From a virus (Duplodnaviria; Heunggongvirae; Uroviricota; Caudoviricetes): a stretch of DNA of 22,911 nt. Location: the IMG/VR virus record IMGVR_UViG_2541047860_000001; one strand, 5' to 3'. Below are positions 1,251 through 22,911 of the stretch, in pieces. Every line of letters starts with the position of its first letter. Position 1 is the stretch's first letter. The position numbers and the translations under genes are program-made. Below the pieces are notes generated by a model. It made no database searches, had not been told where the DNA came from, and saw only the letters and a list, made by a program, of their open reading frames with translations.

Positions 1251-1310
1251 TCCTCACGCTCCATAAACGACAAAACCGCCCGTAGGCGGTTTCACATAAA
1301 ACATTTTGCA

Positions 1311-2623: not shown

Positions 2624-2627
2624 GGGA

Positions 2628-3326
2628 TTACTGCGAAAGTTTGTTAATGGAAAGGAAGCCGCCAAAGTTGCCGACGTTATTGCGAAACTTACAGCCGCTC
2701 AGGCATTTGCTGCATTTATCCTTCGTGATATCGGACGTCGGCTGGTCATATTCATCCGCGACTGCCGGACCGTGATAACCGCACTCATCACCGCGATAGG
2801 TCCAGGTGCAGGTGTTGGCCAGCATGATACGTCCCGGAAAAACAGCGCCATCCGTTTCCGTCGGCGTGGACAGTACAAAGGAGGCACTCACCGCGCTCAG
2901 TTCGCTGCACTGCTCGATGCGCCAGCGGCTGATCACCTCCTGCTCCGGATCGGCGTCACTGTTTCCGTTGACGAAGTTCACCGCATCCAGAAAACGGGCG
3001 TAAACCTTACGCCGGACCACCGTTCCGCCGACCAGACTCTGCAGATCTTCCGCCATCCCGGTGACCATACCGTACAGGTTAGAAACCGTCAGCGTGGGGC
3101 GCGTACTGGTGCCTTTGCCATTCAGTTCAAAACCACTCCCCTGAATGGGATACGGCTGATACTGTCGCCCCTGCCAGGTGACCGGCTCACCTTTTTCGTT
3201 CTGCTCATTACAGAAAAAATAACGTTCTCCACCGACCTCTGTCAGATCGATTTCCCAGAGCACCACGCTGGCCGACTGCTCCGCACGGGTGCATTCATTC
3301 AGTGTTTCCTGCCGGATATCCTGCAT
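2628..3326 (-). CDS. L: Minor tail protein L (232 aa)
   Basis: 232 aa as in lambda L; MQDIRQETLNECTRAEQSASVVLWEIDLTEVGGERYFFCNEQNEKGE...; adjoins M at 3326. Confidence 0.92.
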   Translation of the reverse strand: MQDIRQETLNECTRAEQSASVVLWEIDLTEVGGERYFFCNEQNEKGEPVTWQGRQYQPYPIQGSGFELNGKGTSTRPTLTVSNLYGMVTGMAEDLQSLVGGTVVRRKVYARFLDAVNFVNGNSDADPEQEVISRWRIEQCSELSAVSASFVLSTPTETDGAVFPGRIMLANTCTWTYRGDECGYHGPAVADEYDQPTSDITKDKCSKCLSGCKFRNNVGNFGGFLSINKLSQ

Positions 3327-3655
3327 CAGTTCACCACCTGTTCAAACTCTGCGCTGAACTCAACACGCAGCATACTGACCCGCGACGACCATTTTGCGCA
3401 GGTCACCTTTATCTGCCGCCACTCATAAGGCGGCGTCCACAGAAAGGACTTCCAGCCCCCGTGCTCAGCCAGAAACGACTCAAGCGCCGTGGCCTCCCAA
3501 CGGGGAACAGAAAGCGTCACGCTGTACGTTTTCAGGTCGGCATTCAGCCCGGCAGGCGCTCGCTGGGAATAGCCATCACCAAAGCGCACCTTTCTTACGG
3601 AAGGGGCCGAAGCCACATCCATACCGGGTTTCACTTTCCAGCGGAAGGTTTTCAT
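3326..3655 (-). CDS. M: Minor tail protein M (109 aa)
   Basis: 109 aa, MKTFRWKVKPGMDVASAPSVRKVRFGDGYSQRA..., same length and position as lambda M; overlaps the H stop. Confidence 0.92.
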   Translation of the reverse strand: MKTFRWKVKPGMDVASAPSVRKVRFGDGYSQRAPAGLNADLKTYSVTLSVPRWEATALESFLAEHGGWKSFLWTPPYEWRQIKVTCAKWSSRVSMLRVEFSAEFEQVVN

Positions 3656-6213
3656 CGTCCACCTCCGGAGAACAGACCACCATCGCGCATCTGTGTCTGA
3701 ATTTCATCACGGGCACCCTTGCGGGCCATGTCATACACTGCCTTCATCATCTGTGGACCTGGCAGACCATTCGTACCGTCGTTCTGAATCACCACGTGAT
3801 TGTTCTGATTAAAATTAATGCCTTCAGCCCGCCGCATCTGCGCCGGACTTCCGGCACCGCCCACATAACCACCTTCCGCATAGCCCCGCATCAGGCGGTA
3901 CAGGTTGCCGACACCAATCCGGCTGGTTGCCTCCTTCGTGAAGACAAATTCACCACGGTGAACAATCCCCGCTGGCTCATATTTGCCGCCGGTTCCCGTA
4001 AATCCTCCGGTTGCAAAATGGAATTTCGCCGCAGCGGCCTGAATGGCTGTACCGCCTGACGCGGATGCGCCGCCACCAACAGCCCCGCCAATGGCGCTGC
4101 CGATACTCCCGACAATCCCCACCATTGCCTGCTTAAGCAGAATTTCTGTCATCATGGACAGCACGGAACGGGTGAAGCTGCGCCAGTTCTGCTCACTGCC
4201 GGTCAGCATCGCCGCCATATTCTGTGCAATACCATCAAAGGTCTGCGTGGCTGCACTTTTTACCTGCGACATACTGTCCGTGGCGCTCTCTTCCCACTCA
4301 CTCCAGCCGGACTTCAGGCCTGCCATCCAGCTCCCGCGAAGCTGGTCTTCAGCCGCCCAGGTCTTTTTCTGCTCTGACATGACGTTATTCAGCGCCAGCG
4401 GATTATCGCCATACTGTTCCTTCAGGCGCTGTTCCGTGGCTTCCCGTTCTGCCTGCCGGTCAGTCAGCCCCCGGCTTTTCGCATCAATGGCGGCCCGTTT
4501 TGCCCGTTGCTGCTGTGCGAATTTATCCGCCTGCTGCGCCAGCGCGTTCAGGCGCTCCTGATACGTAACCTTGTCGCCAAGTGCAGCCAGCTGGCGTTTG
4601 TACTCCAGCGTCTCATCTTTATGCGTCAGCAGGGATTTCTCCTGTGCAGACAGCTGGCGACGTTGCGCCGCCTCCTCCAGTACCGCGAACTGACTCTCCG
4701 CCTTCCACAAATCCCGGCGCTGCTGGCTGATTTTCTCATTCGCTCCGGCATGCTTCTCCAGCGTCCGGAGTTCTGCCTGAAGCGTCAGCAGGGCAGCATG
4801 AGCACTGTCTTCCTGACGATCGCCCGCAGACACCTTCACGCCGGACTGTTTCGGCTTTTTCAGCGTCGCTTCATAATCCTTTTTCGCCGCCGCCATCAGC
4901 GTGTTGTAATCCGCCTGCAGGATTTTCCCGTCTTTCAGTGCCTTGTTCAGTTCTTCCTGACGGGCGGTATATTTCTCCAGCGGCGTCTGCAGCCGTTCGT
5001 AAGCCTTCTGCGCCTCTTCGGTATATTTCAGCCGTGACGCTTCGGTATCGCTCTGCTGCTGCGCATTTTTGTCCTGTTGAGTCTGCTGCTCAGCCTTCTT
5101 TCGGGCGGCTTCAAGCGCAAGACGGGCCTTTTCACGATCATCCCAGTAACGCGCCCGCGCTTCATCGTTAACAAAATAATCATCCTTGCGCAGATTCCAG
5201 ATGTCGTCTGCTTTCTTAAACGCAGCCTCTGCCTTAATCAGCATCTCCTGCGCGGTATCAGGACGACCAATATCCAGCACCGCATCCCACATGGATTTGA
5301 ATGCCCGCGCTGTCCTGTCTGCCCAGGTCTCCAGCGTGCCCATGTTCTCTTTCAGCCGGCGGGTCTGGTCATCAAACCCTTTCGTTGCGGCCTCGTTCGC
5401 CGCCTGCAATGCCCCGGCCTCATCGCCGGAACGCTGCAACTGAGCAACATACGCAATCTGCTCCGCCGTCACGTTATGGAACTGGCGTGCCATCGCTGTC
5501 AGCCCTGACGTCGGGTCTGTGGTCAGCTTCCCGAAGGCTTCAGCGACCTTGTCCATCTCCACGCCGGATGCAGAGGAGAAACGCGCCACACTCTGGCTGA
5601 TGGACGCAATCTGAGCCTCACCGCTTACCCCCGCCTTAACCAGTGCGCTGAGTGACTCGCTGGTCTGGTTAAACGTCAGCCCTGCCGCCTGCCCGGCTCT
5701 GGACAGGACCAGCATACGATCTGCCGTCAGTCCCGCCTGATTGCCGGAAAGGACCAGCGTTTTGTTGAAATCGGACAGGGTTGAGTTGCCCTGATACCAG
5801 GCATACGCCAGCGCACCGGTCGCCACCGCCAGCGAGGTGGCCCCCACCATCGGCAGGGTGATCGCACCGGCAAGCCCCCTGAACATGGGGATCATCCCGC
5901 CGAAGGAGTCCTTAACCTGACCACCCTGTTGCAGCAGGATCAGCCACGGACTTTGCCCGCCTGCAAGCTGCGTGGCCACGTCGGTGAACTGTGCAGGCAG
6001 CATACGCATGGCGGTTTTATACTGCCCGACGGAAATCCCCGCTTTCTGTGCAGCCAGCGCCTGTCGGCTCAGCGACTGTTCAACGACTGCCGCTGTTTTT
6101 TTCGCATCACTTTCCGTACCGGAAAAATGACGCCTGACTCTGGCCATCTGCTCGTCAAATCTGGCCGCATCCAGACTCAAATCAACGACCAGATCGCCTA
6201 CCGGTTCAGCCAT
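3652..6213 (-). CDS. H: Tail tape measure protein H (853 aa)
   Basis: 853 aa, identical in length to lambda H; coiled-coil-rich centre (ERLNALAQQADKFAQQQRAKRAA...) and Gly-rich C-terminal region. Confidence 0.93.
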   Translation of the reverse strand: MAEPVGDLVVDLSLDAARFDEQMARVRRHFSGTESDAKKTAAVVEQSLSRQALAAQKAGISVGQYKTAMRMLPAQFTDVATQLAGGQSPWLILLQQGGQVKDSFGGMIPMFRGLAGAITLPMVGATSLAVATGALAYAWYQGNSTLSDFNKTLVLSGNQAGLTADRMLVLSRAGQAAGLTFNQTSESLSALVKAGVSGEAQIASISQSVARFSSASGVEMDKVAEAFGKLTTDPTSGLTAMARQFHNVTAEQIAYVAQLQRSGDEAGALQAANEAATKGFDDQTRRLKENMGTLETWADRTARAFKSMWDAVLDIGRPDTAQEMLIKAEAAFKKADDIWNLRKDDYFVNDEARARYWDDREKARLALEAARKKAEQQTQQDKNAQQQSDTEASRLKYTEEAQKAYERLQTPLEKYTARQEELNKALKDGKILQADYNTLMAAAKKDYEATLKKPKQSGVKVSAGDRQEDSAHAALLTLQAELRTLEKHAGANEKISQQRRDLWKAESQFAVLEEAAQRRQLSAQEKSLLTHKDETLEYKRQLAALGDKVTYQERLNALAQQADKFAQQQRAKRAAIDAKSRGLTDRQAEREATEQRLKEQYGDNPLALNNVMSEQKKTWAAEDQLRGSWMAGLKSGWSEWEESATDSMSQVKSAATQTFDGIAQNMAAMLTGSEQNWRSFTRSVLSMMTEILLKQAMVGIVGSIGSAIGGAVGGGASASGGTAIQAAAAKFHFATGGFTGTGGKYEPAGIVHRGEFVFTKEATSRIGVGNLYRLMRGYAEGGYVGGAGSPAQMRRAEGINFNQNNHVVIQNDGTNGLPGPQMMKAVYDMARKGARDEIQTQMRDGGLFSGGGR

Positions 6214-6640
6214 ACCGGACTCCTCCTGCGATCCCTTCTGATACTGTCATCAGCATTACGTCATCCTCCGTCATGTCCGCCACATCCGGGGAAGCGGGGA
6301 TAACTTCATTCCCGTCCGGGCCAAAACGAACGCCTCCGGCAAGCCCTGCCGCTTTCTGCATCAGCACATCATCTTCAGGCTCTTCGTCAGCCTCGCGCCG
6401 GTTCAGCAGACTGAAATCCAGCGGATGCATCTCCGGATCGCTGAAAAACAGGCTGAGCACGGTGTACGTCAGCCCGGAAAAGTGCATATCCAGCAGAACA
6501 TCATGAAAATAATGGGTACTGTAAAAGCGGTGCCAGTCGGCATACTCCGTGGATGACATCCCGGCAAGCATGGCGCGCCAGTCGGGTCGCCCCATCTCAC
6601 GCGCCAGTTTCAGGGCAAAACTCAGCTCACCGTCGAACAC
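6206..6640 (-). CDS. T: T reading frame of the tail assembly chaperone; expressed as the G-T fusion by -1 programmed frameshift, not from its own start
   Basis: Seen: 144-codon frame overlapping the 3' end of G, with the slippery heptamer GGGAAAG at the junction. Established: lambda gpG/gpGT frameshift. Confidence 0.85.
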   Translation of the reverse strand: MFDGELSFALKLAREMGRPDWRAMLAGMSSTEYADWHRFYSTHYFHDVLLDMHFSGLTYTVLSLFFSDPEMHPLDFSLLNRREADEEPEDDVLMQKAAGLAGGVRFGPDGNEVIPASPDVADMTEDDVMLMTVSEGIAGGVRYG

Positions 6641-7044
6641 TTTCCCGCAGAAACAGGCTCTGCAGGCCCGGCGTCCTCTGCCTGTTCAGGAGCATCATTC
6701 ACCACAAACTCATACATACCGGACAGCCGGTACACCACGTTTTCAGCATGAGAAATTGCCTCTGTGGGCCAGGTGGTAAGCACTTCCTGCTCAATCTGTT
6801 TAACGGCTTCATTCATGGAAGGCAGCTTTGTCTTCTTCGGATGGTTATGCCACAGGGACATCGCCACCAGAAACGCGCCGGTTCTGATGGCGTCTTCCAC
6901 AGTAAACTTCCGGTTGCTGTCTGACTCCGCCTGTTCTGCCTGCCGTTTCATCAGGTCGAGATGCTCAATACGCTGCAGGGCTGACAGTTCAGAAAGCGTG
7001 ACGGTCACACCGTTATGTTCAAATGATTCGGTTTTCAGGAACAT
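6622..7044 (-). CDS. G: Tail assembly chaperone G (140 aa)
   Basis: 140 aa, MFLKTESFEHNGVTVTLSELSALQRIEHL..., matches lambda G. Confidence 0.92.
   Translation of the reverse strand: MFLKTESFEHNGVTVTLSELSALQRIEHLDLMKRQAEQAESDSNRKFTVEDAIRTGAFLVAMSLWHNHPKKTKLPSMNEAVKQIEQEVLTTWPTEAISHAENVVYRLSGMYEFVVNDAPEQAEDAGPAEPVSAGKCSTVS
6639..6645 (-). promoter_or_regulatory. -1 programmed ribosomal frameshift slippery site G GGA AAG (G to G-T)
   Basis: Seen: minus-strand GGGAAAG (plus-strand ctttccc) 5-6 codons before the G stop, exactly where the T frame opens. Confidence 0.8.
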
Positions 7045-7059
7045 CGCTGACTCTCCGGA

Positions 7060-7800
7060 TTAACTGGCGGTGACGTTGATTTCTGCAACCGCAGCAAACT
7101 CACCATTACCAGATACGACCGGAATGTTGACCTTGCCTGCAGCAACACCTTTCACGGTGATGGTCATACCACTGACCGACACGGTGGCTTTTGTTTTATC
7201 CGCAGACACCGCACGGAAGCTCTTGTCGGTTGCGCCATCCGGCTGGAATGCCACGGTCAGCGTGGTGCTCTGCCCTTTCACTACGGAAGCACTGGCGGGT
7301 GTCACCGTCATGCCGGTCGTCGCCGTCACCGTGCTGCGATCTTCTGCCATCGACGGACGTCCCACATTGGTGACCTTCACCGTGCGGGTAATCACTTCCT
7401 TCGCCGTCACCGCCTTACCGATACTGCTGACCCAGCCACGGAACACATCGACCGTGCCGTTCGGGAAGCGGATTTTATAGGCACGGGTATCACCTTCATT
7501 AAACCACGCCAGCAGCGCCTGCTGCCCCTGCTCTCCGGGCATCCACGCCAGCGTGAAGCTGGTATCTCCGGCAGATTTCTGCCCCTGTCCGGTCGCGGTC
7601 CAGTCCGCATCTTCATCATCGAGATAACTGTCGTCATAGGACTCAGCGGTCAGTTCGCCGGGCGTCAGGTCTTTAACCTTTGCCAGACGCGACCAGTCAT
7701 TGTCTGAAAGCGGGTTTGCATAAGGGTCGCCGCTCCCGTTATAAACCCACAGTGTGGTCCCGGCCCCTTTCACCGGTGCCAGAGGATTTGGTGTTGGCAT
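7060..7800 (-). CDS. V: Major tail tube protein V with C-terminal Ig-like domain (246 aa from [16 protein letters not shown])
   Basis: ORF track frame; internal ATG at 7800 gives the lambda gpV length. The C-terminal third ([25 protein letters not shown]...[25 protein letters not shown]) has Big_2-like character. Confidence 0.9.
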
Positions 7801-7807
7801 ATCGTCC

Positions 7808-8203
7808 TCACATTTCATAGGTAATGACATAAGTCAGATCGGCTGAACTCCACAGGCCCGCATCATCGTCGCGCCGGTAGTCATAGCCACTGGCCACCAT
7901 ACTGGTGATCAAATCTGACAGTGCCGGGATATCGCTCATCACCGGATAAATCCGGGACTCCATCCACGAATCCAGCTCTGAATCCGGCACCTGAGCAGGC
8001 AGGAAAACTTCAATATGCAGCTCCGCCTGCCAGGTATCGCTGTCCAGCTCTTCGCCCGTGTATTCAGCGCCGGTGAGATAAACGGCAACTGCCGGAAAAT
8101 CTTCCTCATCAAAAACAGCGGGGCGACCATCAAAAAGCGTCGCCCCGGTGTCATGCTTCTCCAGTGCATCCAGTACGGCTGCACGGAGTTCAGTATGTTT
8201 CAT
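7808..8203 (-). CDS. U: Tail terminator protein U (131 aa)
   Basis: 131 aa, [36 protein letters not shown]..., matches lambda U. Confidence 0.92.
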
Positions 8204-8778
8204 CGCTTTATTACCATTCTCAGTTGATGCTGCAGCGCATAGCCCAGCTCTTTCGGAAGACGCTCACGCCGTATCCGCTCAATATTCTGTTTAAACGCCG
8301 TGGTCAGCGGCACCGCCATCGGGATTTTCACCACATCAATGGGGTAACGGTTTTTCCCGGCCACACGCTGCATGACATGCCACCGGCCATTTTTCAGTTG
8401 CTGAATAAACGCGCCGGGAATACGACGGTTTCCCACCACAAGCACGCTGCCGCCACCTTTCAGGGATGAACGCTGCCCCTTTTTACGACGCCTGCGGCGG
8501 GACAGGACAACCCGCGCATTACCCAGCTTGATTACGGGCAAATCCCCCCGGTTAACCCTGATTCTGGCCTGCGGATTTTTGACCGTGGCCCTTTTCAGCC
8601 TGGCCCTTTCCTTTACCAGTTTCCGGCGTACCTTTGTCTCACGGGCAACCTGTGACGCAGACTGCGATATCGCGGATGACGCAACGCGGTTAATGGCCAT
8701 TGCGGCGGCACCAGGCACCGCCGTTTTGCTGATACGGCTGAGGTTTTCAACGGCCTGCTCAAGACCTTTTATGGCCAT
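8200..8778 (-). CDS. Z: Tail completion protein Z (192 aa)
   Basis: 192 aa, MAIKGLEQAVENLSRISKTAVPGAAAMAINRV..., matches lambda Z; 4-nt overlap with U. Confidence 0.92.
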   Translation of the reverse strand: MAIKGLEQAVENLSRISKTAVPGAAAMAINRVASSAISQSASQVARETKVRRKLVKERARLKRATVKNPQARIRVNRGDLPVIKLGNARVVLSRRRRRKKGQRSSLKGGGSVLVVGNRRIPGAFIQQLKNGRWHVMQRVAGKNRYPIDVVKIPMAVPLTTAFKQNIERIRRERLPKELGYALQHQLRMVIKR

Positions 8779-8789
8779 ACATCCCCCTT

Positions 8790-9143
8790 TCAGCGGCGAC
8801 GGTTAACGGCAGGCGGTACGCCCCGCCCAAGCCAGAGATGACAGCTTCCGCCATCATCCGGCGAAATCCGGTCTATCCAGAAGTTTTCCTCACCGATGGT
8901 CAGCGTGTCGCCGCGCCGCAGCTGCCGCACATCATCAGTCCGGACAAACAGGGACGGGCTGGAGCCTTCAACGCGCACGCCCTGTCCGGCATAGCTGATA
9001 TTTTCAGGGTCATCAAAAACACCACGTATCACCGCACCTGACTGCTCACCGGATGTCATGGTGGCTGACGTTCCCATGTACCCGCGTATCGTTTCATCGG
9101 CGCGGGCAATGGCAGCATCGAACAGGTTATCGAAATCAGCCAC
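8790..9143 (-). CDS. FII: Head-tail connector protein FII (117 aa)
   Basis: 117 aa, MADFDNLFDAAIARADETIRGYMGTSATMTSGEQSGAVIRGVFDDPENISYAGQGVRVEG..., matches lambda FII. Confidence 0.92.
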   Translation of the reverse strand: MADFDNLFDAAIARADETIRGYMGTSATMTSGEQSGAVIRGVFDDPENISYAGQGVRVEGSSPSLFVRTDDVRQLRRGDTLTIGEENFWIDRISPDDGGSCHLWLGRGVPPAVNRRR

Positions 9144-9154
9144 AGCGCCTCCCG

Positions 9155-9553
9155 TTATTGCATTCTGGCCAGGCCGCGCTCTGTCATTTCGGCTGCCACA
9201 CCGGCAGAGACACGAAACGCCGTTCCCGGCAGCACAAATGCCACAGGTTTATCCCGCGTGGCGTGAAGTGCATCAGTATGCAGCGTCACCAGTGCCACGA
9301 CCGTGACCAGTTCAGCCGTATCCTGAATCACGGTATCCGGCTGCGCTGATACCACCTCATTTTCATGCCCGGTCAGCACATTTTCCCGGCTGAGAGGGGT
9401 GTCCTGACCGGCAGTTTCATCCGTGTCATCAAGCTCTTCTTCCAGCTCTGCCACACGAAGCGCCAGTTCTTCTTTCGTTCCCGTCAAACTGACATCACGG
9501 TTCAGTTGTTCACCCAGCGAGCGGAGACGGGCAATCAGTTCATCTTTCGTCAT
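9155..9553 (-). CDS. FI: DNA packaging protein FI (132 aa from MTKDELIARLRSLGEQL)
   Basis: Internal ATG at 9553 preceded by GGAGGAG; length and sequence as lambda FI. The track ORF starting at 9592 is an upstream in-frame extension. Confidence 0.88.
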   Translation of the reverse strand: MTKDELIARLRSLGEQLNRDVSLTGTKEELALRVAELEEELDDTDETAGQDTPLSRENVLTGHENEVVSAQPDTVIQDTAELVTVVALVTLHTDALHATRDKPVAFVLPGTAFRVSAGVAAEMTERGLARMQ

Positions 9554-9594
9554 GGACTCCTCCACAGAGAAACAATGGCCCCGAAGGGCCATGA

Positions 9595-10620
9595 TTACGC
9601 CAGTTGTACGGACACGAACTCATCAGGATCAGCCAGCAGCATCAGCGGTGCTGACTGAATCATGGTGAACTCACGCGCCGGATCGCCGGTGGTCACCCAG
9701 TTTTTCGGGTAGCGGGCAGAGGCGTTAATACCTTCGCGCTGTGCGTCCGCATCCTGAATGCAGCCATAGGTGCGCAGACCGCGTGCCTGAGTGTTCCCCA
9801 GCACCATCGTGTTGTCCGGCAGGAAGTTCTTTTTGACGTCGTTTTCCACGTACTGTCCGGAATACACGACGATCGCCGTATCGCCATACATCCCCTTATA
9901 GGACACCGCTTCGCCCAGGTCTTTTACCGCTGTCTCCAGCTCGGAATTAGAGCCGCGACGGGTATCCAGCTTCTCCTTGACGGCTTTGAAGGAACGGAAC
10001 AGCGCCCAGCCTTTCGGATCAAACACGATGATATTCACCACGCCGCTGGCGTTCAGCGCATAGGCTTCGATATCGTCGGTCGGGTCATACGTGGACTTGT
10101 CACACTTGCTCCACTCCGTACCACCGGACTGTGTGATGTTGTTCGCCGCACTGCGGCCCATATCCACCTCAACCGGATCGAAGGCTTCACCGGTCATGGT
10201 GTATTTGCCCTTAAGCACAGCAGAAACTGCCTGCATCTCTTCGACCTGAGCAATGGCCAGCTCTTCGTCTCGCATGTTCTGCATGATGATGCGACGGCGG
10301 CGGTAAGCCGGGTCCGCCAGATTCTGCGGATCTTCATCCGGCAGGCGACGCAGGGTCATCTGCGGATTCACCTCATGCTTGGGTTTGACATATCCCGGCG
10401 TAAATTCAGAGGTGGAGCCGCCACGGGAACGGATAACCTCACCGGAAACAATCGGCGAAACGTACAGCGCCATGTTTACCAGTCCCGGAATTTGTGAGAG
10501 ATAGACTTTCTCCGTGGTGAAGGGATAGCTCTCACGGAAAAAGAGACGCAGAAACAGCGGATCAAACTTAAATTTCTGCTCATTTGCCGCCAGCAGCTGG
10601 GCGGTTGTGTACATCGACAT
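9595..10620 (-). CDS. E: Major capsid protein E (341 aa from MSMYTTAQLLAANEQKFKFDPLFLRLFF)
   Basis: ATG at 10620; lambda gpE length and N-terminus. Confidence 0.93.
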   Translation of the reverse strand: MSMYTTAQLLAANEQKFKFDPLFLRLFFRESYPFTTEKVYLSQIPGLVNMALYVSPIVSGEVIRSRGGSTSEFTPGYVKPKHEVNPQMTLRRLPDEDPQNLADPAYRRRRIIMQNMRDEELAIAQVEEMQAVSAVLKGKYTMTGEAFDPVEVDMGRSAANNITQSGGTEWSKCDKSTYDPTDDIEAYALNASGVVNIIVFDPKGWALFRSFKAVKEKLDTRRGSNSELETAVKDLGEAVSYKGMYGDTAIVVYSGQYVENDVKKNFLPDNTMVLGNTQARGLRTYGCIQDADAQREGINASARYPKNWVTTGDPAREFTMIQSAPLMLLADPDEFVSVQLA

Positions 10621-10633
10621 AAAAAAATCCCGT

Positions 10634-10654
10634 AAAAAAAGCCGCACAGGCGGC
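10634..10654 (-). terminator. D-E intergenic stem-loop (GCCGC-CUGU-GCGGC) followed by U7; partial terminator or RNA-stability hairpin
   Basis: Seen: 5-bp GC stem at 10641-10654 with an A-run on the plus strand (U-run in the minus transcript) between the D stop and the E start. Confidence 0.45.
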
Positions 10655-10675
10655 CTTTAGTGATGAAGGGTAAAG

Positions 10676-11008
10676 TTAAACGATGCTGATTGCCGTTCCG
10701 GCAAACGCGGTCCGTTTTTTCGTCTCGTCGCTGGCAGCCTCCGGCCAGAGCACATCCTCATAACGGAACGTGCCGGACTTGTAGAACGTCAGCGTGGTGC
10801 TGGTCTGGTCAGCATCAACCGCCAGAATGCCAACGGCAGTACCGTCGGTGGTGCCATCCCACGCAACCAGCTTACGGGTGGAGGTGTCCAGCATCAGCGG
10901 GGTCATTGCAGGCGCTTTCGCACTCAATCCGCCGGGCGCGGTTGCGGTATGAGCCGGGTCACTGTTGCCCAGCGGCTGGTAATGGGTAAAGGTTTCTTTG
11001 CTCGTCAT
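10676..11008 (-). CDS. D: Capsid decoration protein D (110 aa from [27 protein letters not shown])
   Basis: Matches lambda gpD; start taken at the MTSKET Met (11008). Confidence 0.92.
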
Positions 11009-11017
11009 AAACATCCC

Positions 11018-11413
11018 TTACACTGGTGTGTTCAGCAAATCGTTAACGGCATCAGATGCCGGGTTACCTGCAGCCAGCGGTGCCGGTGCCCCCTGCATCA
11101 GACGATCCAGCGCAGTGTCACTGCGCGCCTGTGCACTCTGTGGTGCAGCTGCCAGAATGCGGCGGGCCGTTTCCACGGTCATACCGGGGGTTTCTGCCAG
11201 CACGCGGGCCTGTTCTTCGCGTCCGTGAGCCTCCTCACAGTTGAGGATCCCCATAATGCGGCTGTTTTCTGCCGCAACCGCAGCGGTGATCTGCGCGTTC
11301 ACGTCCGGCTGCGCCGCGCTGGCGTTTTCGCCCTCCGTCGCTGGCACCACGTCAGTAACGTCAGCCTGCGAAGCAGTGGCTGAAACAGTTGTTGATTGAG
11401 TCTCTTTGGTCAT
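11018..11413 (-). CDS. Nu3: Scaffolding protein Nu3 (131 aa), in-frame internal start within the 3' part of C
   Basis: Seen: ATG at 11413 preceded by AGGAGG; MTKETQSTTVSATASQADVTDVVPATEGE.... Established: lambda Nu3 is nested in frame in C. Confidence 0.85.
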   Translation of the reverse strand: MTKETQSTTVSATASQADVTDVVPATEGENASAAQPDVNAQITAAVAAENSRIMGILNCEEAHGREEQARVLAETPGMTVETARRILAAAPQSAQARSDTALDRLMQGAPAPLAAGNPASDAVNDLLNTPV

Positions 11414-12317
11414 TCGCCCTCCTGAGAGACGGGATTTACGTGCATCCAGTGCATCACGCATAACGGTGATCGCATCGGTGCTGTTGACAAGTTCATCAGC
11501 CAGTCCGGCATCAATGGCCTCCTGACCGCTGTACACTGCAGCCTCGGTATCCAGCACAGCCTGCACGGACAGGCCGGTATATGCCGACACCTTCTGTGCA
11601 AACATCCGGCGGGTTGCATCCATCCGGGACTGCAATGTTTCCCGGACATCATCCGGTAGATGGCTGTAGGGGTTGCCATCCACCTTATGGCTGCCGCTGT
11701 AAATCAGCGTGATTTCCACGCCCTGTTTCTCCAGTGCAGCGCCGTAATTACTGTGAGCCATCATGACGCCGATGGAGCCTGTCCGGGCGGTCTGCGTGAC
11801 CAGACGCCGGGAGGCGGCACTGGCAAGCAGCTGACCTGCGCTGCAGTTCATGTCATTGGCCAGCGCCCATACCGGCTTTATGTCACGCACACGGGCGATG
11901 ATGTCAGCGCAGTCAAATGCCCCCGCCACCATCCCGCCGGGCGTGTCCATATCGAGCAGAATGCCGTCCACCATCGGATCGCTGGCAGCCTGTTGCAGAC
12001 GGGCGATAATGCCGTTGTAACCGGTCATCCCCGAGTACGGCTGCAGCGCCCGCGTCCGGCTGACCAGCGTGCCGGACACCGGCAGCACGGCGATGCCGTT
12101 CATGACCTGATAACTGCGGGCCTGTCGTGGTCCGTCATCATCACCGGATAATGCCAGCGTCGCGAGTGCCTCCTGGGCAGTCAGGCTGTCGCCGGACACC
12201 GCATCCGTCAGGCGGCTGATCCCAAGCTGGCCTGCAAGCGCACAAAAGAAAACCCGCGCATAGGCGGGTTCAAGCATCAGCGGCTCATTAAAAGCCATGC
12301 TGGCAATATGCGGGAGA

Positions 12318-12337
<20 letters not shown>
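11018..12337 (-). CDS. C: Head maturation protease/scaffold C (439 aa, GTG start)
   Basis: Seen: GTG at 12337 (VTAELRNLPHIASMAFNEPLMLEP...) overlapping the B stop by 20 nt; length equals lambda gpC. The 484-aa track ORF is an upstream extension. Confidence 0.88.
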
Positions 12338-16018
<3,681 letters not shown>

Positions 16019-16044
<26 letters not shown>

Positions 16045-16564
16045 TCAGCAACCCCGGTATCAGTTCATCCAGCGCGGCTGCTTTGTTCATGGCTTTGATG
16101 ATATCCCGTTTCAGGAAATCAACATGTCGGTTTTCCAGTTCCGGAAAACGCCGCTGCACCGACAGGGGGATCCCGTCGAGAATACTGGCAATTTCACCTG
16201 CGATCCGCGACAGCACGAAAGTACAGAATGCGGTTTCCACCACTTCAGCGGAGTCTCTGGCATTTTTCAGCTCCTGTGCGTCGGCCTGCGCACGCGTAAG
16301 TCGATGGCGTTCGTACTCAATAGTCCCTGGCTGGAGATCTGTCTCGCTGGCCTGCCGCAGTTCTTCAACTTCCCGGCGCAGCTTTTCGTTCTCAATTTCA
16401 GCATCCCTTTCGGCATACCATCTTATAACGGCGGCAGAGTCATAAAGCACCTCATTACCCTTGCCACCGCCTCGCAGAACGGGCATTCCCTGTTCCTGCC
16501 AGTTCTGAATGGTACGGATACTCGCACCGAAAATGTCAGCCAGCTGCTTTTTGTTGACTTCCAT
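16019..16564 (-). CDS. Nu1: Terminase small subunit Nu1 (181 aa)
   Basis: 181 aa, MEVNKKQLADIFGASIRTIQNWQEQGMPVLRGGGKGNEVLYDSAAVIRWYAERDAEIENEKLRREVEELRQ..., matches lambda Nu1. Confidence 0.94.
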
Positions 16565-16790
16565 TGTTCATTCCACGGCCAAAAACAGAGAAAGGAAACG
16601 ACAGAGGCCCAAAAGCTCGTTTTCAGCACCTGTCGTTTCCTTTCTTTTCAGGGGGTATTTTAAATAAAAACATTAAGTTACGACGAAGAAGAACGGAAAT
16701 GCCTTAAACCGGAAAATTTTCATAAATAGCGAAAACCCGCGAGGTCGCCGCCCCGTAACCTGTCGGATCGCCGGAAAGGACCCGCAAAAT
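16565..16790 (-). other. cos packaging site: cosB (about 16565-16741), cosN with the 12-nt cohesive-end sequence (16742-16753, plus strand AGGTCGCCGCCC = reverse complement of GGGCGGCGACCT), cosQ side (about 16754-16790)
   Basis: Seen: gaaaacccgcg-aggtcgccgccc-cgtaacctgtcggatcgccggaaaggaccc is the reverse complement of the lambda left-end/right-end junction. Established: lambda cos architecture. Confidence 0.88.
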
Positions 16791-16952
16791 GATAATAATT
16801 ATCATCTGCATGTCACAACGTGCATCTACGCCATCAAACCACGTCAAATAATCAATTATGACGCAGATATCGTATTAATTGATCTGCATCAACTTAACGT
16901 AAAAACAACTTCAGACAATACAAATCAGCGACACTGAATACGGGACAACCTC

Positions 16953-17186
16953 ATGTCAACGAAGAACAGAACCCGCAGAACAACAACCCGCAACATCCGC
17001 TTTCCTAACCAAATGATTGAACAAATTAACATCGCTCTTGAGCAAAAAGGGTCCGGGAATTTCTCAGCCTGGGTCATTGAAGCCTGCCGCCGGAGACTGT
17101 GCTCAGAAAAAAGAGTTTCTTCTGAAGCAAACAAAGAAAAGAGTGACATTACTGAATTGCTCAGAAAACAGGTCAGACCAGATTGA
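16953..17186 (+). CDS. ynfO: Small basic protein with ribbon-helix-helix-like core (77 aa); YnfO-like, equivalent to an ORF near the lambda right end
   Basis: Seen: MSTKNRTRRTTTRNIRFPNQMIEQINIALEQKGSGNFSAWVIEACRRRL... The strand/helix/turn/helix spacing is my reading, not a search result. Symbol assigned by position and memory of K-12 Qin. Confidence 0.7.
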   Translation: MSTKNRTRRTTTRNIRFPNQMIEQINIALEQKGSGNFSAWVIEACRRRLCSEKRVSSEANKEKSDITELLRKQVRPD

Positions 17187-17243
17187 AGCAATTTAGATAA
17201 TCGTGCAGACTACGCCCCCTCATATCACATGGAAGGTTTATCT

Positions 17244-17654
17244 ATGGATCAGGTAGTCATTTTTAAACAAATATTTGATAAAGTTCGAAACGATTTAAAC
17301 TATCAATGGTTTTATTCTGAGCTAAAACGTCACAATGTCTCACATTACATTTACTATTTAGCCACAGAGAATGTTCATATTGTATTAAAAAATGATAATA
17401 CAGTGTTATTAAAGGGCCTAAAAAACATTGTGTCTGTCAAATTTTCAAAGGATAGGCATCTTATAGAAACGACCTCTAATAAGCTGAAATCCAGAGAGAT
17501 CACATTTCAGGAATACAGAAGAAACCTTGCTAAAGCAGGAGTTTTTCGGTGGGTTACAAATATCCACGAACAAAAAAGATATTACTATACCTTTGATAAT
17601 TCATTACTATTTACTGAAAGCATCCAGAAAACTACACAGATCTTACCACGCTAA
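17244..17654 (+). CDS. ydfO: DUF1398-type protein, YdfO-like (136 aa from [11 protein letters not shown]; the track ORF starts 5 codons upstream at 17229)
   Basis: Seen: GGAAGG 9 nt before the ATG at 17244; the sequence (…[46 protein letters not shown]...) matches my memory of E. coli YdfO. Function unknown. Confidence 0.75.
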
Positions 17655-17662
17655 ACCATAAC

Positions 17663-17691
17663 GTCCGGCTTCTCTCACTCCTGAGCCGGAC
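17663..17691 (+). terminator. Possible stem-loop between convergent ydfO and gnsB (GTCCGGCT / AGCCGGAC, 13-nt loop); no clear U-tract
   Basis: Seen: 8-bp inverted repeat immediately after the ydfO stop. Weak as an intrinsic terminator. Confidence 0.3.
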
Positions 17692-17805
17692 TGCATTGGT
17701 TTAATAAAAACCATCAACAATTGTGATTTAGATATTCGGAACCATTCAAATATAACAAAACCCCGTAAAAACGAGGTTTATGGATAAATTTTATTATTGA
17801 ATACA

Positions 17806-17979
17806 TCAGATTAAATTAATCTTGACATCATAGCTTTCAAGACCCGTCATTTTTTCCCGTGCGGTAAACTGAATACTGGTAACTTCTTTCCCGGTCTTTT
17901 TCTTAAGTTCAATAATTTTTTTTGTTATATATTCAGAAATATCTGCTTCTGCTTTTGTTTTTAAGTTTTCAATATTCAT
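17806..17979 (-). CDS. gnsB: GnsA/GnsB-family small protein (57 aa); not in the ORF track because it is under 60 aa
   Basis: Seen: minus-strand ORF M(M)NIENLKTKAEADISEYITKKIIELKKKTGKEVTSIQFTAREKMTGLESYDVKINLI; tandem ATGs at 17982 and 17979. Established: GnsB is encoded in K-12 Qin. Confidence 0.75.
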   Translation of the reverse strand: MNIENLKTKAEADISEYITKKIIELKKKTGKEVTSIQFTAREKMTGLESYDVKINLI

Positions 17980-18150
17980 CATTTCCTCTTTTAGTCTGTT
18001 ATGACTTTCCAGTTACACAGTAAGTCGATTATATGGTGCAAACGTGTAAAAGATAAGATGAAACATCGCAATAATCAACATACGATAGTCTAAATTTTAC
18101 ACAAACAGACAAAGAAAATTTTCCTGAATTATCAATACAATAGCATCAAA

Positions 18151-18381
18151 TCAACTCAAGAGCCTTATTGCTGCTTCCAGAATTTCTTCTGAAGTAACAT
18201 GTCGATCCGCGGCTACATAAATGACTTTATGATCTCCGGTCAGAGATGGAAACCCTGCGGCCATTACAGTAAGGTGTGTTTTTTCGCCATTTGGATATTC
18301 ACGCATGATGGTGTTAACTCCAGTCATCGCTGGCACTACCACTGCAGGTTCAGAGTTAAAAAAAACTATGATTTTTTTCAT
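18151..18381 (-). CDS. Small protein of unknown function (76 aa from MKKIIVFFNSEPAVVVPAMTGV...; alternative start 18423 gives 90 aa); by position possibly YnfN-like
   Basis: ORF track 18151-18423; no strong SD before either start; sits between gnsB and cspI. I cannot confirm identity from memory. Confidence 0.5.
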   Translation of the reverse strand: MKKIIVFFNSEPAVVVPAMTGVNTIMREYPNGEKTHLTVMAAGFPSLTGDHKVIYVAADRHVTSEEILEAAIRLLS

Positions 18382-18418
18382 GATGTTACCGTAGTATGTG
18401 AGTATCCATCGAATAGAT

Positions 18419-18446
18419 ACCAAGCAAAAAAGCTCCCGAAGGAGCC
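18419..18446 (-). terminator. Candidate intrinsic terminator downstream of cspI (GCUCC-UUCG-GGAGC + U6)
   Basis: Seen: 5-bp GC stem at 18432-18445 with a run of 6 A on the plus strand (U in the minus transcript). Short stem; it overlaps the longer alternative start of the adjacent small ORF. Confidence 0.4.
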
Positions 18447-18652
18447 TTCATTTTCACTTTTTTAAATCCAACGACAGACGGCTGGCATTTAAGTATTGTG
18501 AAATATTATCAAATGTAATCATCATTGATTTACAAAAGATACATTTTGCCCCGAAAGGATTCATGTCAGAAACATCAAAAGATGATGTTCTATACTGGGA
18601 ACCATGACAACACGGGCATCTAAAGTGAATATGGTTTGTAATATTGTCTACC

Positions 18653-18865
18653 TCAAAGCGCCACTACATGAACAGCGGCAGGACCTTTAGGTCCGTTCTC
18701 AATACCAAATTCAACTTCCTGATTCTCAGTTAATGTTTTGAAATCGTTGCTCTGAATTGCTGAGAAATGGACAAACACATCTTTGCTGCCATCTTTCGGC
18801 GTGATGAAACCAAAACCTTTTTCAGGGTTAAACCATTTCACTAAACCAGTCATTTTGTTAGACAT
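18653..18865 (-). CDS. cspI: Cold-shock protein, CspA family (70 aa), CspI
   Basis: Seen: [70 protein letters not shown]; RNP1-like KGFGFI and RNP2-like VFVHF motifs; matches remembered CspI. Confidence 0.9.
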
Positions 18866-19228
18866 AATTATTACCTTTTGAAGAAATTAGCCCTTGGGCA
18901 GAATGGTCCGAAAAAAAATATCAGAGAGAAAAACCAACAAGGAAATCTCAAGAGGTACAAATAATAAAATTATAACAATGACTGCTTCAGATAAATTTGT
19001 AACAAACCAGAACACCATTAACGCATGATTAACCACCCATAGCAAGGATTACTTTTGTAAAGAAAAACACAGCAATGAAAGAATAGCTTTATTTATTAAT
19101 AATAACGTGTCATTCTGATTAAGACCTTTTATCTTACCCTTAAGATTTCAGGAATTTTGGCTCATGGAAGAGTCCTTTTTATTTAAATTTTACATTCCGC
19201 GATGTAAATGTTCCGATTTAATATTACC

Positions 19229-20252
<1,024 letters not shown>

Positions 20253-20256
<4 letters not shown>

Positions 20257-20564
20257 ATATATTTATGATGAGGACGCTCGTGCTTATTGGCAGGATTTTC
20301 AATCTTAAAGGAGTACTGATGCTGCAGATAAGACTCAACTTTTTCTGACAATTTTTCTGCTACTTCCAGGAAGACTTGCCGGACGCTCCTTCTGGCTGCT
20401 GCCTCATAAAACTCCAGCGCAGCTCCTTCAACACGGTCCATGGCGACATCCAGGTCAAAAATTTCACCGTCAAAGCGTTCTTTGTCCTGTAAGGCTACAG
20501 TTACCGTAACTTTATTCTCAAAATTACGGACTCCTTTCACAACCAGTTCATAGTCTTGAGTCAT
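20253..20564 (-). CDS. ydfR: DUF1327-type protein of unknown function (103 aa) between holin and endolysin
   Basis: Seen: MTQDYELVVKGVRNFENKVTVTVALQDKERFDGEIFDLDVAMDRVEGAALEFYEAAARR...; GGAGAG SD; stop overlaps the endolysin ATG (ATGA). Symbol by synteny with K-12 Qin. Confidence 0.75.
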
Positions 20565-20568
20565 TGGA

Positions 20569-20784
20569 TTACTCTCCTCTCGCAGCCTTACGCCTGTCTT
20601 CTTTAATCTTGAAATAAAGATTTGTCAGATACGTCAGCAGGCCAAAAACCAGGCTACCCAGCACACCGATTGCAGCCCACTGTGACGGAGTTACTTTATC
20701 GAGTAACTGCAATGCCCAGAAACCAGCATTACCCGCCGATGTGCCATAGGCAACACCTGTTGTTAACTTATCCATTGATTTCAT
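20569..20784 (-). CDS. essQ: Class II holin of S21 pinholin type (71 aa) with dual-start motif MKSM
   Basis: Seen: [71 protein letters not shown], two TM segments, close to phage-21 S; GGGGTGAGGA SD before the ATG at 20784. The track ORF starting at 20859 is an extension without RBS. Confidence 0.88.
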
Positions 20785-21003
20785 ATCCTCACCCCGATGT
20801 ACACGGATGGTGCAATATGTTTGAAAAGATCGGAGTCTACGGGGTAGTTTTGACAGCACACGTTGTTCTCAACGGCGCTAAAAAAACATACACATTAAAA
20901 ATGTGGGTAATTATTTTGAAAGAAAGTCATATATAAAATAATAATACGAGAAATGTTTTCATATTTAGTGTACTGTATACGGCCATTTATACAGGAAAAG
21001 CCT

Positions 21004-21174
21004 ATGTCAGAACGTAAAAACTCAAAATCACGCCGTAATTATCTCGTTAAATGTTCCTGCCCAAACTGCACCCAAGAGTCAGAACACAGTTTTTCAAGAG
21101 TACAAAAAGGTGCCCTTTTGATCTGCCCTCATTGCAACAAAGTATTCCAGACAAATCTTAAAGCTGTAGCCTGA
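21004..21174 (+). CDS. Small zinc-ribbon protein (56 aa, two CxxC pairs), possibly YnfU-like
   Basis: Seen: AGGAAA 8 nt before the ATG at 21004; MSERKNSKSRRNYLVKCSCPNCTQESEHSFSRVQKGALLICPHCNKVFQTNLKAVA with CPNC...CPHC. Resemblance to K-12 YnfU is from memory and unverified. Confidence 0.6.
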   Translation: MSERKNSKSRRNYLVKCSCPNCTQESEHSFSRVQKGALLICPHCNKVFQTNLKAVA

Positions 21175-21224
21175 TTGATTTTATTAGTAACAAGTATTTT
21201 TTATATTTTAATAATATATTTAAA

Positions 21225-21256
21225 GCAGATAATAAAAAACCCGCCTGAGCGGGTTT
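21225..21256 (-). terminator. Intrinsic terminator (AAACCCGC-UCAG-GCGGGUUU + U-tract) downstream of cspB
   Basis: Seen: 8-bp stem at 21237-21256 followed on the minus strand by UUUUUUAUUAUC; on the plus strand it lies about 65 nt after the zinc-ribbon ORF, so it may act in both directions. Confidence 0.6.
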
Positions 21257-21537
21257 GAGATTGTGGTGCTTTTTGTGGGAGTCATCCACTTACGCACTTT
21301 GTTTTGCCATGCCAGCAGTTAGCTTCTGCTGTAAAACTATTCATGCAGCAAACCTGCACTTCACCACAATGGTTAGCATACTTTTCCTGATTAAGATTTT
21401 GCCAAATATGCTAGCCATTGTTTCATGTATTGGACCTCCTTACTTTTTATTAAAGAGATCCAATATTCACTACTCTGTCCGTATCTCTACTCAGGCATCA
21501 GCCTTCTTCGTTATCGTATACAGACGAGCGATGAATT

Positions 21538-21753
21538 TTAATCAGTAATGATGACATTTGCTGCTGCAGGACCTTTAGCACCACTCTCTATAGAGAAGGT
21601 AACCTTTTGACCTTCAAATAAGGTTCGATAATTATCATTCTGAATCGCAGAAAAATGCACAAACACATCTTTACTACCATCAACAGGAGAAATAAAGCCG
21701 AAACCTTTATCAGCGTTAAACCATTTTACTAAACCAGTCATTTTATTTGACAT
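21538..21753 (-). CDS. cspB: Cold-shock protein, CspA family (71 aa), CspB
   Basis: Seen: [71 protein letters not shown]; matches remembered CspB. Confidence 0.9.
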
Positions 21754-21960
21754 TCTACATTCCTTAACTTGAGCCTTTCGGCATAAATGGTTTGCATAAC
21801 AGAAACGACTTCGTACTTAATTGGAGAGACTCAAAGAAGGAATAAGTGAATAACACCTGAAATGAGAACTGCTTTAGTAAACTACTTCGTATATCGTCTG
21901 TTCTTCAAACCGACGCAATCATTAACGCATAGTTGAACATATGAAGCAATGTTTATTTTA
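21754..21960 (-). promoter_or_regulatory. cspB promoter and long 5' UTR with cold-box-like element (minus-strand CGGTTTGAAGAACAGACGA at 21894-21912)
   Basis: Seen: about 160-nt leader before cspB ending in the SD AAGGAATG; the motif resembles the cspA cold box (CGGTTTGACGTACAGAC); -35 TTGCTT / -10 GTTAAT candidates upstream. Established: cspA-type genes have long cold-box leaders. Confidence 0.55.
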
Positions 21961-22053
21961 GACATCCAGCCATCTTCAACCCCATCAAAAAACTATAGCT
22001 TTCTTCAGGAACGTGTGTATAGTGCGCCAAGTTATCAGTATTAAGGAATTTTT

Positions 22054-22266
22054 TTGTCCCGTAAAATGACAGGAATTGTCAAAACCTTTGACGGCAAAAG
22101 CGGCAAGGGTCTTATCACCCCATCCGATGGTCGTATCGATGTCCAGCTTCATGTTTCAGCGCTCAATCTCCGCGATGCAGAAGAAATTACCACCGGATTA
22201 CGCGTGGAATTTTGCCGGATAAATGGTCTGCGTGGCCCTTCAGCTGCCAATGTTTACCTTTCATGA
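22054..22266 (+). CDS. cspF: CspA-family paralogue of the CspF/CspH subgroup (70 aa)
   Basis: Seen: [70 protein letters not shown]; diverges from canonical RNP motifs as CspF/H do; divergent from cspB as in K-12 Qin. Confidence 0.85.
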
Positions 22267-22320
22267 GCTATATTAAAGCTTTAATTTCAGGCCCCATCGG
22301 ATCACACATGGAGAGTTTTT

Positions 22321-22410
22321 ATGAATAACCCCGTCTGTCTTGATGACTGGTTGATTGGCTTTAAAAGCTTATGCTGTACTTTGGCCGTAATAGCTCTGCT
22401 AATAATATAA
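22321..22410 (+). CDS. Candidate small hydrophobic peptide (29 aa, [29 protein letters not shown])
   Basis: Seen: GGAGAG 6 nt before the ATG; C-terminal hydrophobic stretch long enough for a TM helix; a terminator follows at 22560-22595. Expression is unverified. Confidence 0.4.
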
Positions 22411-22556
22411 TAAGCAGACTCATTGTGTTTAGGGACATTGTACTGGAAGAAAACATTTTAAACATCAGGCAAATAACCAAGTCACCAGCTAAATAATAAG
22501 TTAACAGACATGAGTCCCGGGATGAGATTCAACATTACCATTGCCCCATTTAAAGC

Positions 22557-22595
22557 ACAAAACCCGCTCATCAGCGGGTTTTCTACTTTTTCTTA
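22557..22595 (+). terminator. Intrinsic terminator (AAACCCGCU-CAUC-AGCGGGUUU followed by UUCUACUUUUUCUU); a hairpin with a weaker U-tract also forms on the minus strand
   Basis: Seen: 9-bp stem at 22560-22581 and a T-rich tract 22582-22595. Confidence 0.65.
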
Positions 22596-22627
22596 ACGTC
22601 GGGTATACAAAGCCCATCGTTGAAAAA

Positions 22628-22656
22628 ATTTTATCCATATTTTTTGAAAAATGCAA
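22628..22656 (-). promoter_or_regulatory. Candidate sigma70 promoter on the minus strand (-35 TTGCAT, 17-bp spacer, -10 TAAAAT) pointing at the hairpin and the lysis genes; possible late promoter (pR'-like)
   Basis: Seen: hexamers at 22651-22656 and 22628-22633. Inference: its position upstream of the lysis module fits a Q-dependent late promoter with a short terminated leader. Confidence 0.4.
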
Positions 22657-22700
22657 ACATCATGTCGCCATCTTCAGCAAAAATCATTTATCTCGTCACC

Positions 22701-22911
22701 GGTGATGCTGCCAACTTACTGATTTAGTGTATGATGGTGTTTTTGAGGTGCTCCAGTGGCTTCTGTTTCTATCAGCTGTCCCTCCTGTTCAGCTACTGAC
22801 GGGGTGGTGCGTAACGGCAAAAGCACCGCCGGACATCAGCGCTATCTCTGCTCTCACTGCCGTAAAACATGGCAACTGCAGTTCACTTACACCGCTTCTC
22901 AACCCGGTACG
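22701..22911 (+). mobile_element. IS1 insertion sequence, left end (IRL from 22701), continuing beyond the window
   Basis: Seen: GGTGATGCTGCCAACTTACTGATTTAGTGTATGATGGTGTTTTTGAGGTGCTCCAGTGGCTTCTGTTTC is the IS1 left terminus as I recall it. Confidence 0.9.
22756..22911 (+). CDS. insA: IS1 InsA (transposition repressor), 5' part; GTG start
   Basis: Seen: GTG at 22756 then [51 protein letters not shown], a zinc-finger N-terminus identical to IS1 InsA. Confidence 0.9.

Follow-up and report, generated by a model that had tools for sequence, protein, structure and literature searches.

When a prophage contig stops inside an insertion sequence beside a late promoter, the question arises of what has become of the late activator gene that would be expected there. 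The window considered here, a 22,911-nt stretch of lambdoid prophage DNA, ends in this manner, and a preliminary description of it proposed that IS1 had truncated or displaced the activator, leaving a structurally intact virion module that could not be expressed. Comparison with uninterrupted relatives, and with the sequence on the far side of the element, points to a different outcome. The anatomy, which is very probably correct, is that of a single IS1 at the extreme 3′ end of the activator gene quuQ, with the late cassette intact and the activator untruncated. The encoded protein carries a short C-terminal tail and would, by a narrow margin of probability, keep at least partial, possibly reduced, activity. 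Taken together, the anatomy and the activity of the tailed protein form a reading to which a probability of about 60% is assigned. The features on which this reading draws are listed in Table 1.

Table 1. Positions of the features discussed (window coordinates unless a locus is named).
Feature	Position	Strand	Basis or content
Lambda-type virion module, Nu1 to J	3–16564	−	Full-length, stop-free matches to PhiR42_1 proteins
Lysis cassette (holin, YdfR, lysozyme, Rz)	19229–20784	−	tblastn with PhiR42_1 proteins: 99–100%, full coverage, no stops
Intrinsic terminator tR′	22559–22582	−	Hairpin from scan; the terminator that a Q must override
Predicted transcription start (~22621) and sigma70-dependent pause element	22613–22621	−	AACGAT, then GGG
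Late promoter pR′	22628–22656	−	−35 TTGCAT (22656–22651), 17-bp spacer, −10 TAAAAT (22633–22628)
quuQ/ydfT, stranded 3′ remnant	22688–22700	−	Alignment to K-12 MG1655 Qin, ydfT translation, frame analysis
Target-site duplication CTCGTCACC, 9 bp, window-side copy	22692–22700		Same 9 bp after the IS1 right end in locus L003
IS1, left 211 bp	22701–22911	+	100% identity to annotated IS1A in locus L001
IS1 left terminal inverted repeat GGTGATGCTGCCAACTTACTGAT	22701–22723		Identical to annotated IS1A
insA, first 52 codons	from 22756	+	Identical to IS1A
Other IS1 insertions	L001 6500–7268; L019 ~300–1070; L020 ~300–1070; L021 ~1300–2070; L022 ~1770–2540		

The window corresponds to one entire contig within the E. 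coli scaffold KE701069.1 (GCA_000459435.1), where it occupies positions 1555837–1578747 of the record. It matches the scaffold at 100% with zero mismatches, window 13397–22911 falling in the stretch that spans IS1 (locus L003) and window 1–16213 in a second stretch (locus L031) that was reached through the tape-measure protein H. Position 1 adjoins a 4000-N gap in gene J (L031 16214–20213), and position 22911 adjoins a 290-N gap within IS1 (L003 10967–11256). It is because of this gap that the window stops within the element, as had been noted from the window itself. Both ends of the window are assembly breaks in repeats and are not biological boundaries. The best match to the whole window among 5,426 complete E. 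coli genomes has 98.5% identity, and the source is thus no closed RefSeq genome. The tail protein M is very common (8,306 index blocks).

Members of the IS1 family are approximately 768 bp long, possess terminal inverted repeats of about 23 bp, and encode insA and insB′, which are joined by a programmed −1 frameshift; target duplications of 9 bp are typical. The placement of the IS1 left end at 22701 in the preliminary description is confirmed by the 100% identity of window 22700–22911 to the left end of an annotated IS1A, and the terminal repeat opens with GGTGATGCTGCC at that position. Matches to the Pfam domains Zn_ribbon_InsA (PF03811) and DDE_Tnp_IS1 (PF03400) were obtained on the gene calls flanking the scaffold gap. 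The IS1 right repeat (...ATCAATAAGTTGGAGTCATTACC) is found on the far side of this gap in L003, and KE701069.1 continues there as ...CAATAAGTTGGAGTCATTACC, CTCGTCACC and TTCCTCAATTGCG..., that is, the right repeat, a second copy of CTCGTCACC and the remaining part of quuQ. The 9-bp target duplication that had been expected beyond the element is therefore present, with one copy on either side of IS1 in the scaffold. Furthermore, the two IS1 flanks overlap on the genome of phage PhiR42_1 by exactly 9 bp (17553–17561). The gap and both IS1 ends together come to 718 bp, compared with 768 bp for one IS1, a figure that depends on the estimated size of the gap. In no carrier is the interior of the element assembled, the insA-insB′ frameshift site included, and eight draft contigs end 27–259 nt into IS1, as a repeat would predict. 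The presence of a single 768-bp IS1 is deduced from the duplication and the gap size, because the interior is unsequenced in all carriers, and one simple IS1 insertion would be by far the most economical reading. The element resembles the IS1A of E. coli and Shigella in its identical left end, its right inverted repeat, its 9-bp duplication and its AT-rich prophage target; no difference is seen in the sequenced parts, the interior being a gap. The insA gene points into quuQ, against the direction of late transcription.

The identity of the interrupted gene is evident from its uninterrupted relatives. Window 21900–22700 matches the Qin prophage of E. coli K-12 MG1655 at 100% identity, and the K-12 sequence runs on without IS1 where the window enters the element. 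In both K-12 and PhiR42_1, quuQ ends at the equivalent of window position 22688, with IS1 sitting 10 nt inside its 3′ end. The K-12 gene (also named ydfT) is on the minus strand and encodes 250 amino acids ending in ...AQLRKVTR. The remnant in the window holds one base of the K247 codon, the codons for V248, T249 and R250, and the stop codon TAA (22690–22688), which reads as G, VTR and stop. The preliminary description reported only one minus-strand frame open across the junction, for eight codons. That frame exists (VGSIT/GDEINDFC, then stop; the slash marks the junction), but it is not the only one, as a second frame also crosses (ISKLAASP/VTR, then stop) with three native codons. The three-codon frame, as the alignments show, is that of the real gene and the end of quuQ. 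Since the shorter frame is the real one, the position of IS1 within the last codons of the activator was overlooked.

Because IS1 makes 9-bp duplications, the interrupted quuQ was predicted to read ...KVTR and then VMTPTY before a stop. A protein identical to this predicted 256-residue fusion has been deposited publicly (EQV11044.1 and three further accessions), and the quuQ::IS1 product consists of 250 native residues followed by six that are derived from IS1 (VMTPTY). The codon for R250 becomes AGG in place of AGA, a synonymous change, and all 250 native residues are retained because the 9-bp duplication repeats the last codons. The gene itself is shifted 777 bp away from its promoter by the 768-bp IS1 and the 9-bp duplication. 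The activator is therefore displaced and tailed, and neither truncated nor lost. The expectation of a late activator at this place was correct, as quuQ belongs to the lambda-Q family, and a Q-like reading frame is indeed interrupted beyond IS1, within its last 10 nt and with every native residue present. Of the two fates proposed for it, displacement holds and truncation does not, a complete quuQ lying beyond the element. The truncation scenario is refuted: an intact Q-type gene beyond IS1 is the first of the two observations that the preliminary description had itself named as speaking against it.

The K-12 Qin region (quuQ/ydfT-cspF-cspB-essQ) shares its gene order with the window and is 99.8% identical to it over 17898–22700. 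It differs in that Qin has no IS1 here and in that the window, beyond the shared lysis and moron region, carries lambda-type genes from Nu1 to J. PhiR42_1 (PV340562.1) is collinear with both IS1 flanks (99.89% and 99.41% identity) and is 97.8% identical over the whole window, and the two share Q, pR′, the morons, the lysis genes and virion genes of the lambda type. Its quuQ has no IS1, and it represents the uninterrupted counterpart of this locus. The viability of PhiR42_1 rests on its deposit as a complete phage genome for which a host is named; a literature search on the isolation of PhiR42_1 or of the ECOR-derived PhiR phages gave nothing usable. The source prophage is 99.4–99.9% identical to PhiR42_1 across its late genes and 10.7 kb of early sequence. 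A transposase gene lies between the replication genes and flxA in both (L003 4755–6068; PhiR42_1 11567–12880), and in L003 it encodes one 437-residue product with HTH_28/29/32 and rve_3 matches. Its occurrence in PhiR42_1 as well as in the source prophage indicates that it is no strain-specific lesion.

The promoter-like site noted beside IS1 in the preliminary description is 44 bp from the element, and its assignment is backed by homology to lambda pR′. A consensus promoter scan is by itself not above chance (10 sites compared with 7.0 expected), and the pR′ call consequently rests on comparison. An ungapped alignment of the promoter region with lambda pR′ gives 34 matches in 56 positions and an equal 17-bp spacing, and the block CAACGATGGG is identical in the window and in lambda. 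The −35 hexamer, spacer, −10 hexamer and pause block hardly vary among SfV, 2H10, an Stx2c phage and SKA5, and AACGATGGG (22621–22613) is unchanged in each of the seven aligned sequences, lambda pR′ among them. The alignments show that the site is a true homologue of lambda pR′. In lambda, AACGAT is the sigma-dependent pause element at which Q is loaded (PMC9388147). By this alignment, the first base of IS1 is predicted to lie at about −80 from the transcription start, upstream of every recognised promoter element. In 1992, Yarnell and Roberts reportedly placed the lambda Q-binding element between the −35 and −10 hexamers. The spacer of pR′ in the window resembles that of lambda and is almost invariant among QuuQ-type phages, and a putative QuuQ-binding element should be located within it. 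The distance from the Q stop codon to the −35 hexamer is 31 bp in K-12, PhiR42_1, SfV, 2H10, the Stx2c phage and SKA5, and 42 bp in lambda.

The region between the promoter and the late genes has also been compared with that of related phages. The predicted leader RNA of ~70 nt (22621 to ~22550) has a computed folding energy of −30.4 kcal/mol (z = −6.0), and an Rfam scan of this leader returned no known RNA family. At the position of tR′, all five related phages have a hairpin and then a T-run, the stem sequence being different in SKA5, and the annotation of SfV includes a terminator at this position. The homology of SfV and the Stx2c phage to Qin ends just past tR′, indicating a module boundary there. 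The PhiR42_1 annotation also includes a 51-residue hypothetical protein (window 22504–22656, minus strand), the frame of which runs from the −35 hexamer of pR′ through the leader and the terminator; this open reading frame is probably an annotation artefact and not a gene. Overall, the locus resembles the lambda Q-pR′-tR′ cassette in its 17-bp spacing, its identical AACGATGGG and its intrinsic terminator, followed by lysis and virion genes. In contrast to lambda, in which the 6S RNA is longer than the leader found here, cold-shock moron genes separate tR′ from the holin gene, IS1 parts the Q gene from pR′, and Q has a six-residue tail.

The genes that depend on this switch are well preserved. 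The 33 lysis, moron and virion proteins of PhiR42_1 that fall wholly within the window are all full length and stop-free (33/33), and the thirty-fourth tested, J, is cut at residue 416 by the end of the contig. The complete virion genes are Nu1, A, W, B, C, D, E, FI, FII, Z, U, V, G, T, H, M, L, K and I, and window 1–17673 is ~97% identical to phage lambda DNA. In another carrier assembly (L030), the J, lom and tail-fibre genes are complete. The joining of a lambda-like virion module to a Qin-type Q, lysis and moron region is a mosaic that is also found in PhiR42_1 and PhiR63_1. The Rfam cspA thermoregulator (RF01766) is matched at full length twice, at 21522–21914 and at 18626–19011, both on the minus strand. 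These matches span cspB and cspI with long 5′ leaders on the strand of the late genes, and cspB and cspI are cold-shock morons lying inside the late transcription unit.

The relationship of QuuQ to the lambda antiterminator is clear from profile searches. QuuQ matches Pfam PF03589, the Q-lambda family (PMC9388147), with 181 bits (cut-off 26.7; E = 3.6e-54). It matches the lambda Q structure (PDB 7ubm) over residues 1–120 and 160–250 with E = 4.6e-36, and the profile phrog_127 ("anti-termination protein Q-like") over residues 1–250 only with E = 2.5e-105. Both QuuQ and lambda Q end in VTR. In contrast to lambda Q (207 residues), QuuQ has 43 additional residues, with an extra DnaJ-type CXXCXGXG zinc-finger segment. 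This second CXXCXGXG motif (Pfam DnaJ_CXXCXGXG) is located at approximately residues 121–159 of QuuQ (L002 4789–5541, minus strand), between the two blocks that align with lambda Q. A search of the literature on quuQ gave nothing usable.

The C-terminus to which the tail is attached is of known importance in lambda Q. Residues 195–207 of lambda Q refold to extend a helix, L202 and T206 touch either the flap-tip helix of RNA polymerase or the Q torus, and antitermination is abolished by substitutions at this place (PMC9388147). The equivalent residues of QuuQ are L245 and T249, which lie five residues and one residue, respectively, before the new tail. In an alignment of 21 sequences that includes lambda Q, V248 and T249 are fully conserved and L245 and R250 almost fully. 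Furthermore, all but two of ~114 full-length family representatives (down to 63% identity) end in VTx. The exceptions are a protein that ends in VTLK, with one added residue, and P0028, a 243-residue protein that ends seven residues early (...AYAEA) and may be partial. No extension resembling the VMTPTY tail was found among these ~114 representatives down to 63% identity. In an AlphaFold model, the alignment for which left out lambda Q, residues 250–256 have pLDDT values below 50 and form a disordered appendage after the helix of residues 216–251. A paper on lambda Q and NusA that was checked for the tolerance of C-terminal tags contains only N-terminal tags.

On the preferred reading, IS1 has transposed into the 3′ end of quuQ in a lambdoid prophage similar to PhiR42_1 and Qin, duplicating CTCGTCACC. 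After induction, the early rightward transcript would still supply QuuQ, and QuuQ would act in trans at pR′, which is now ~0.8 kb away. With RNA polymerase paused at AACGAT, the protein would load onto it and allow it to read through tR′ into the late genes. Because QuuQ would still be made and would act in trans, the switch would be rearranged and not destroyed. Lambda Q is said to prefer to act in cis, as reported by Echols in 1976 and by Burt and Brammar in 1982, and the extra distance could therefore cost some activity. With the anatomy as described, silencing of the virion module would depend only on whether the VMTPTY tail harms QuuQ.

The alternative that survives best accepts the same anatomy and differs on this last point. 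It holds that the tail inactivates Q, such that loading and nozzle formation fail and transcription from pR′ stops at tR′; the intact lysis and virion module would be locked, and the prophage grounded, without any truncation. This possibility is a serious one, if rather less probable than retained activity. The tail directly follows the C-terminal helix that needs to contact the flap-tip helix and the Q torus, and the lambda Q contact residues that are needed for antitermination correspond to L245 and T249. However, zero native residues are lost and the model shows an unstructured tail. Short disordered C-terminal tails are often tolerated. The position of the C-terminus is nearly invariant in the family, and the PHROG profile ends at residue 250, but a fixed stop position may merely reflect the rarity of stop-loss variants. 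Similarly, the loss of early regions from three carriers (L007, L008 and L009) would fit a prophage that is no longer under selection, although prophages with a normal Q also carry deletions, and both the late genes of the source genome and 10.7 kb of its early region are still 99.4–99.9% identical to those of a deposited phage. The stronger proposal, that a tail beginning one residue past the polymerase-contacting threonine abolishes Q loading and has locked the module across an E. coli lineage, is a little more doubtful still. If this is true, quuQ::IS1 would count as a naturally occurring separation-of-function allele of the Q C-terminus, and the lock would in principle be reversible by precise excision of IS1 across the 9-bp repeats.

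Two further explanations place the effect outside the protein sequence of QuuQ or remove the protein altogether. IS1 polarity and the binding of host factors at IS1 ends are established, and the element could act in cis through polarity on readthrough from the early operon, through end-bound proteins at approximately −80 of pR′, or through antisense transcription from the insA promoter, which faces quuQ, opposes late transcription and would cover the 3′ end of quuQ. Such an effect is very improbable as the explanation here, as lambda-type late expression begins at pR′ and needs Q at the pause site, not readthrough from upstream (PMC9388147), and the −35 hexamer, spacer, −10 hexamer and pause element all lie downstream of −40 and are unchanged. 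Least probable of all is that IS1 truncated or removed the activator, or that an IS1-mediated deletion or inversion moved a Q-type gene elsewhere: IS1 has caused adjacent deletions in this region of other genomes (SW07091 and LR-03), and the join over IS1 in the source contig depends on scaffolding, but the 9-bp duplication stands on both sides, the flanks are exactly contiguous in K-12 and PhiR42_1, full-length quuQ runs into the IS1 right end in nine independent loci, and the 718 bp of gap and ends is near the length of one IS1.

The preservation of an untruncated, tailed activator carries a practical lesson, in that a contig ending in IS1 beside a late promoter does not imply loss of the activator; here the duplication has preserved the full coding sequence. 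In predictions of prophage inducibility from draft genomes, this prophage is to be entered as "Q present, with a C-terminal tail" and not as "Q missing". If the tail proves inactivating, the allele would offer a natural probe of the Q C-terminal helix and an example of a prophage silenced without gene loss. Beyond annotation, the importance of the finding is slight: a lambdoid prophage has taken up IS1 in the ordinary way, and public databases already contain the allele as "antitermination protein".

The distribution of the allele has also been examined. The 256-residue quuQ::IS1 product was found in 31 index blocks, with 24 contigs examined, and the identical IS1-quuQ junction is present in nine loci, comprising scaffold KE701069.1 and eight draft contigs. 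A search of 5,426 complete E. coli genomes for the quuQ::IS1 junctions gave no single-piece match; the multi-piece matches in these genomes proved to be IS1 copies at other sites of the same region. The carriers, which include GCA_011318415.1, are not uniform. The genes from int through O are absent from L007 and L008, the replication genes are absent from L009, and L010 differs at 0.3% of sites. In L007 and L008, rspB almost adjoins a DUF977 gene (4836–6215), and in L009 the loss of the replication genes is located at ~3547. These differences between early regions indicate that the insertion is not brand new and that some carriers have decayed further. As some of them have no integrase-to-replication segment or no replication genes, the allele persists in otherwise clearly defective prophages.

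Other complete genomes carry IS1 at neighbouring sites. In one of these (L001), IS1 lies in ynfS and is flanked by the duplication TAGCTCTGC; in others it lies in cspB, in cspF itself, beside cspF with a deletion, or just after tR′ with a deletion extending to gnsB. In SW07091 and LR-03, IS1 abuts a recombinase fragment or gnsB. In total, at least five other independent IS1 insertions are found in the ~1.2-kb quuQ-cspB interval of Qin-like prophages, two of them with adjacent deletions. This AT-rich stretch between quuQ and cspB looks like a recurrent target of IS1 and a starting point of prophage decay.
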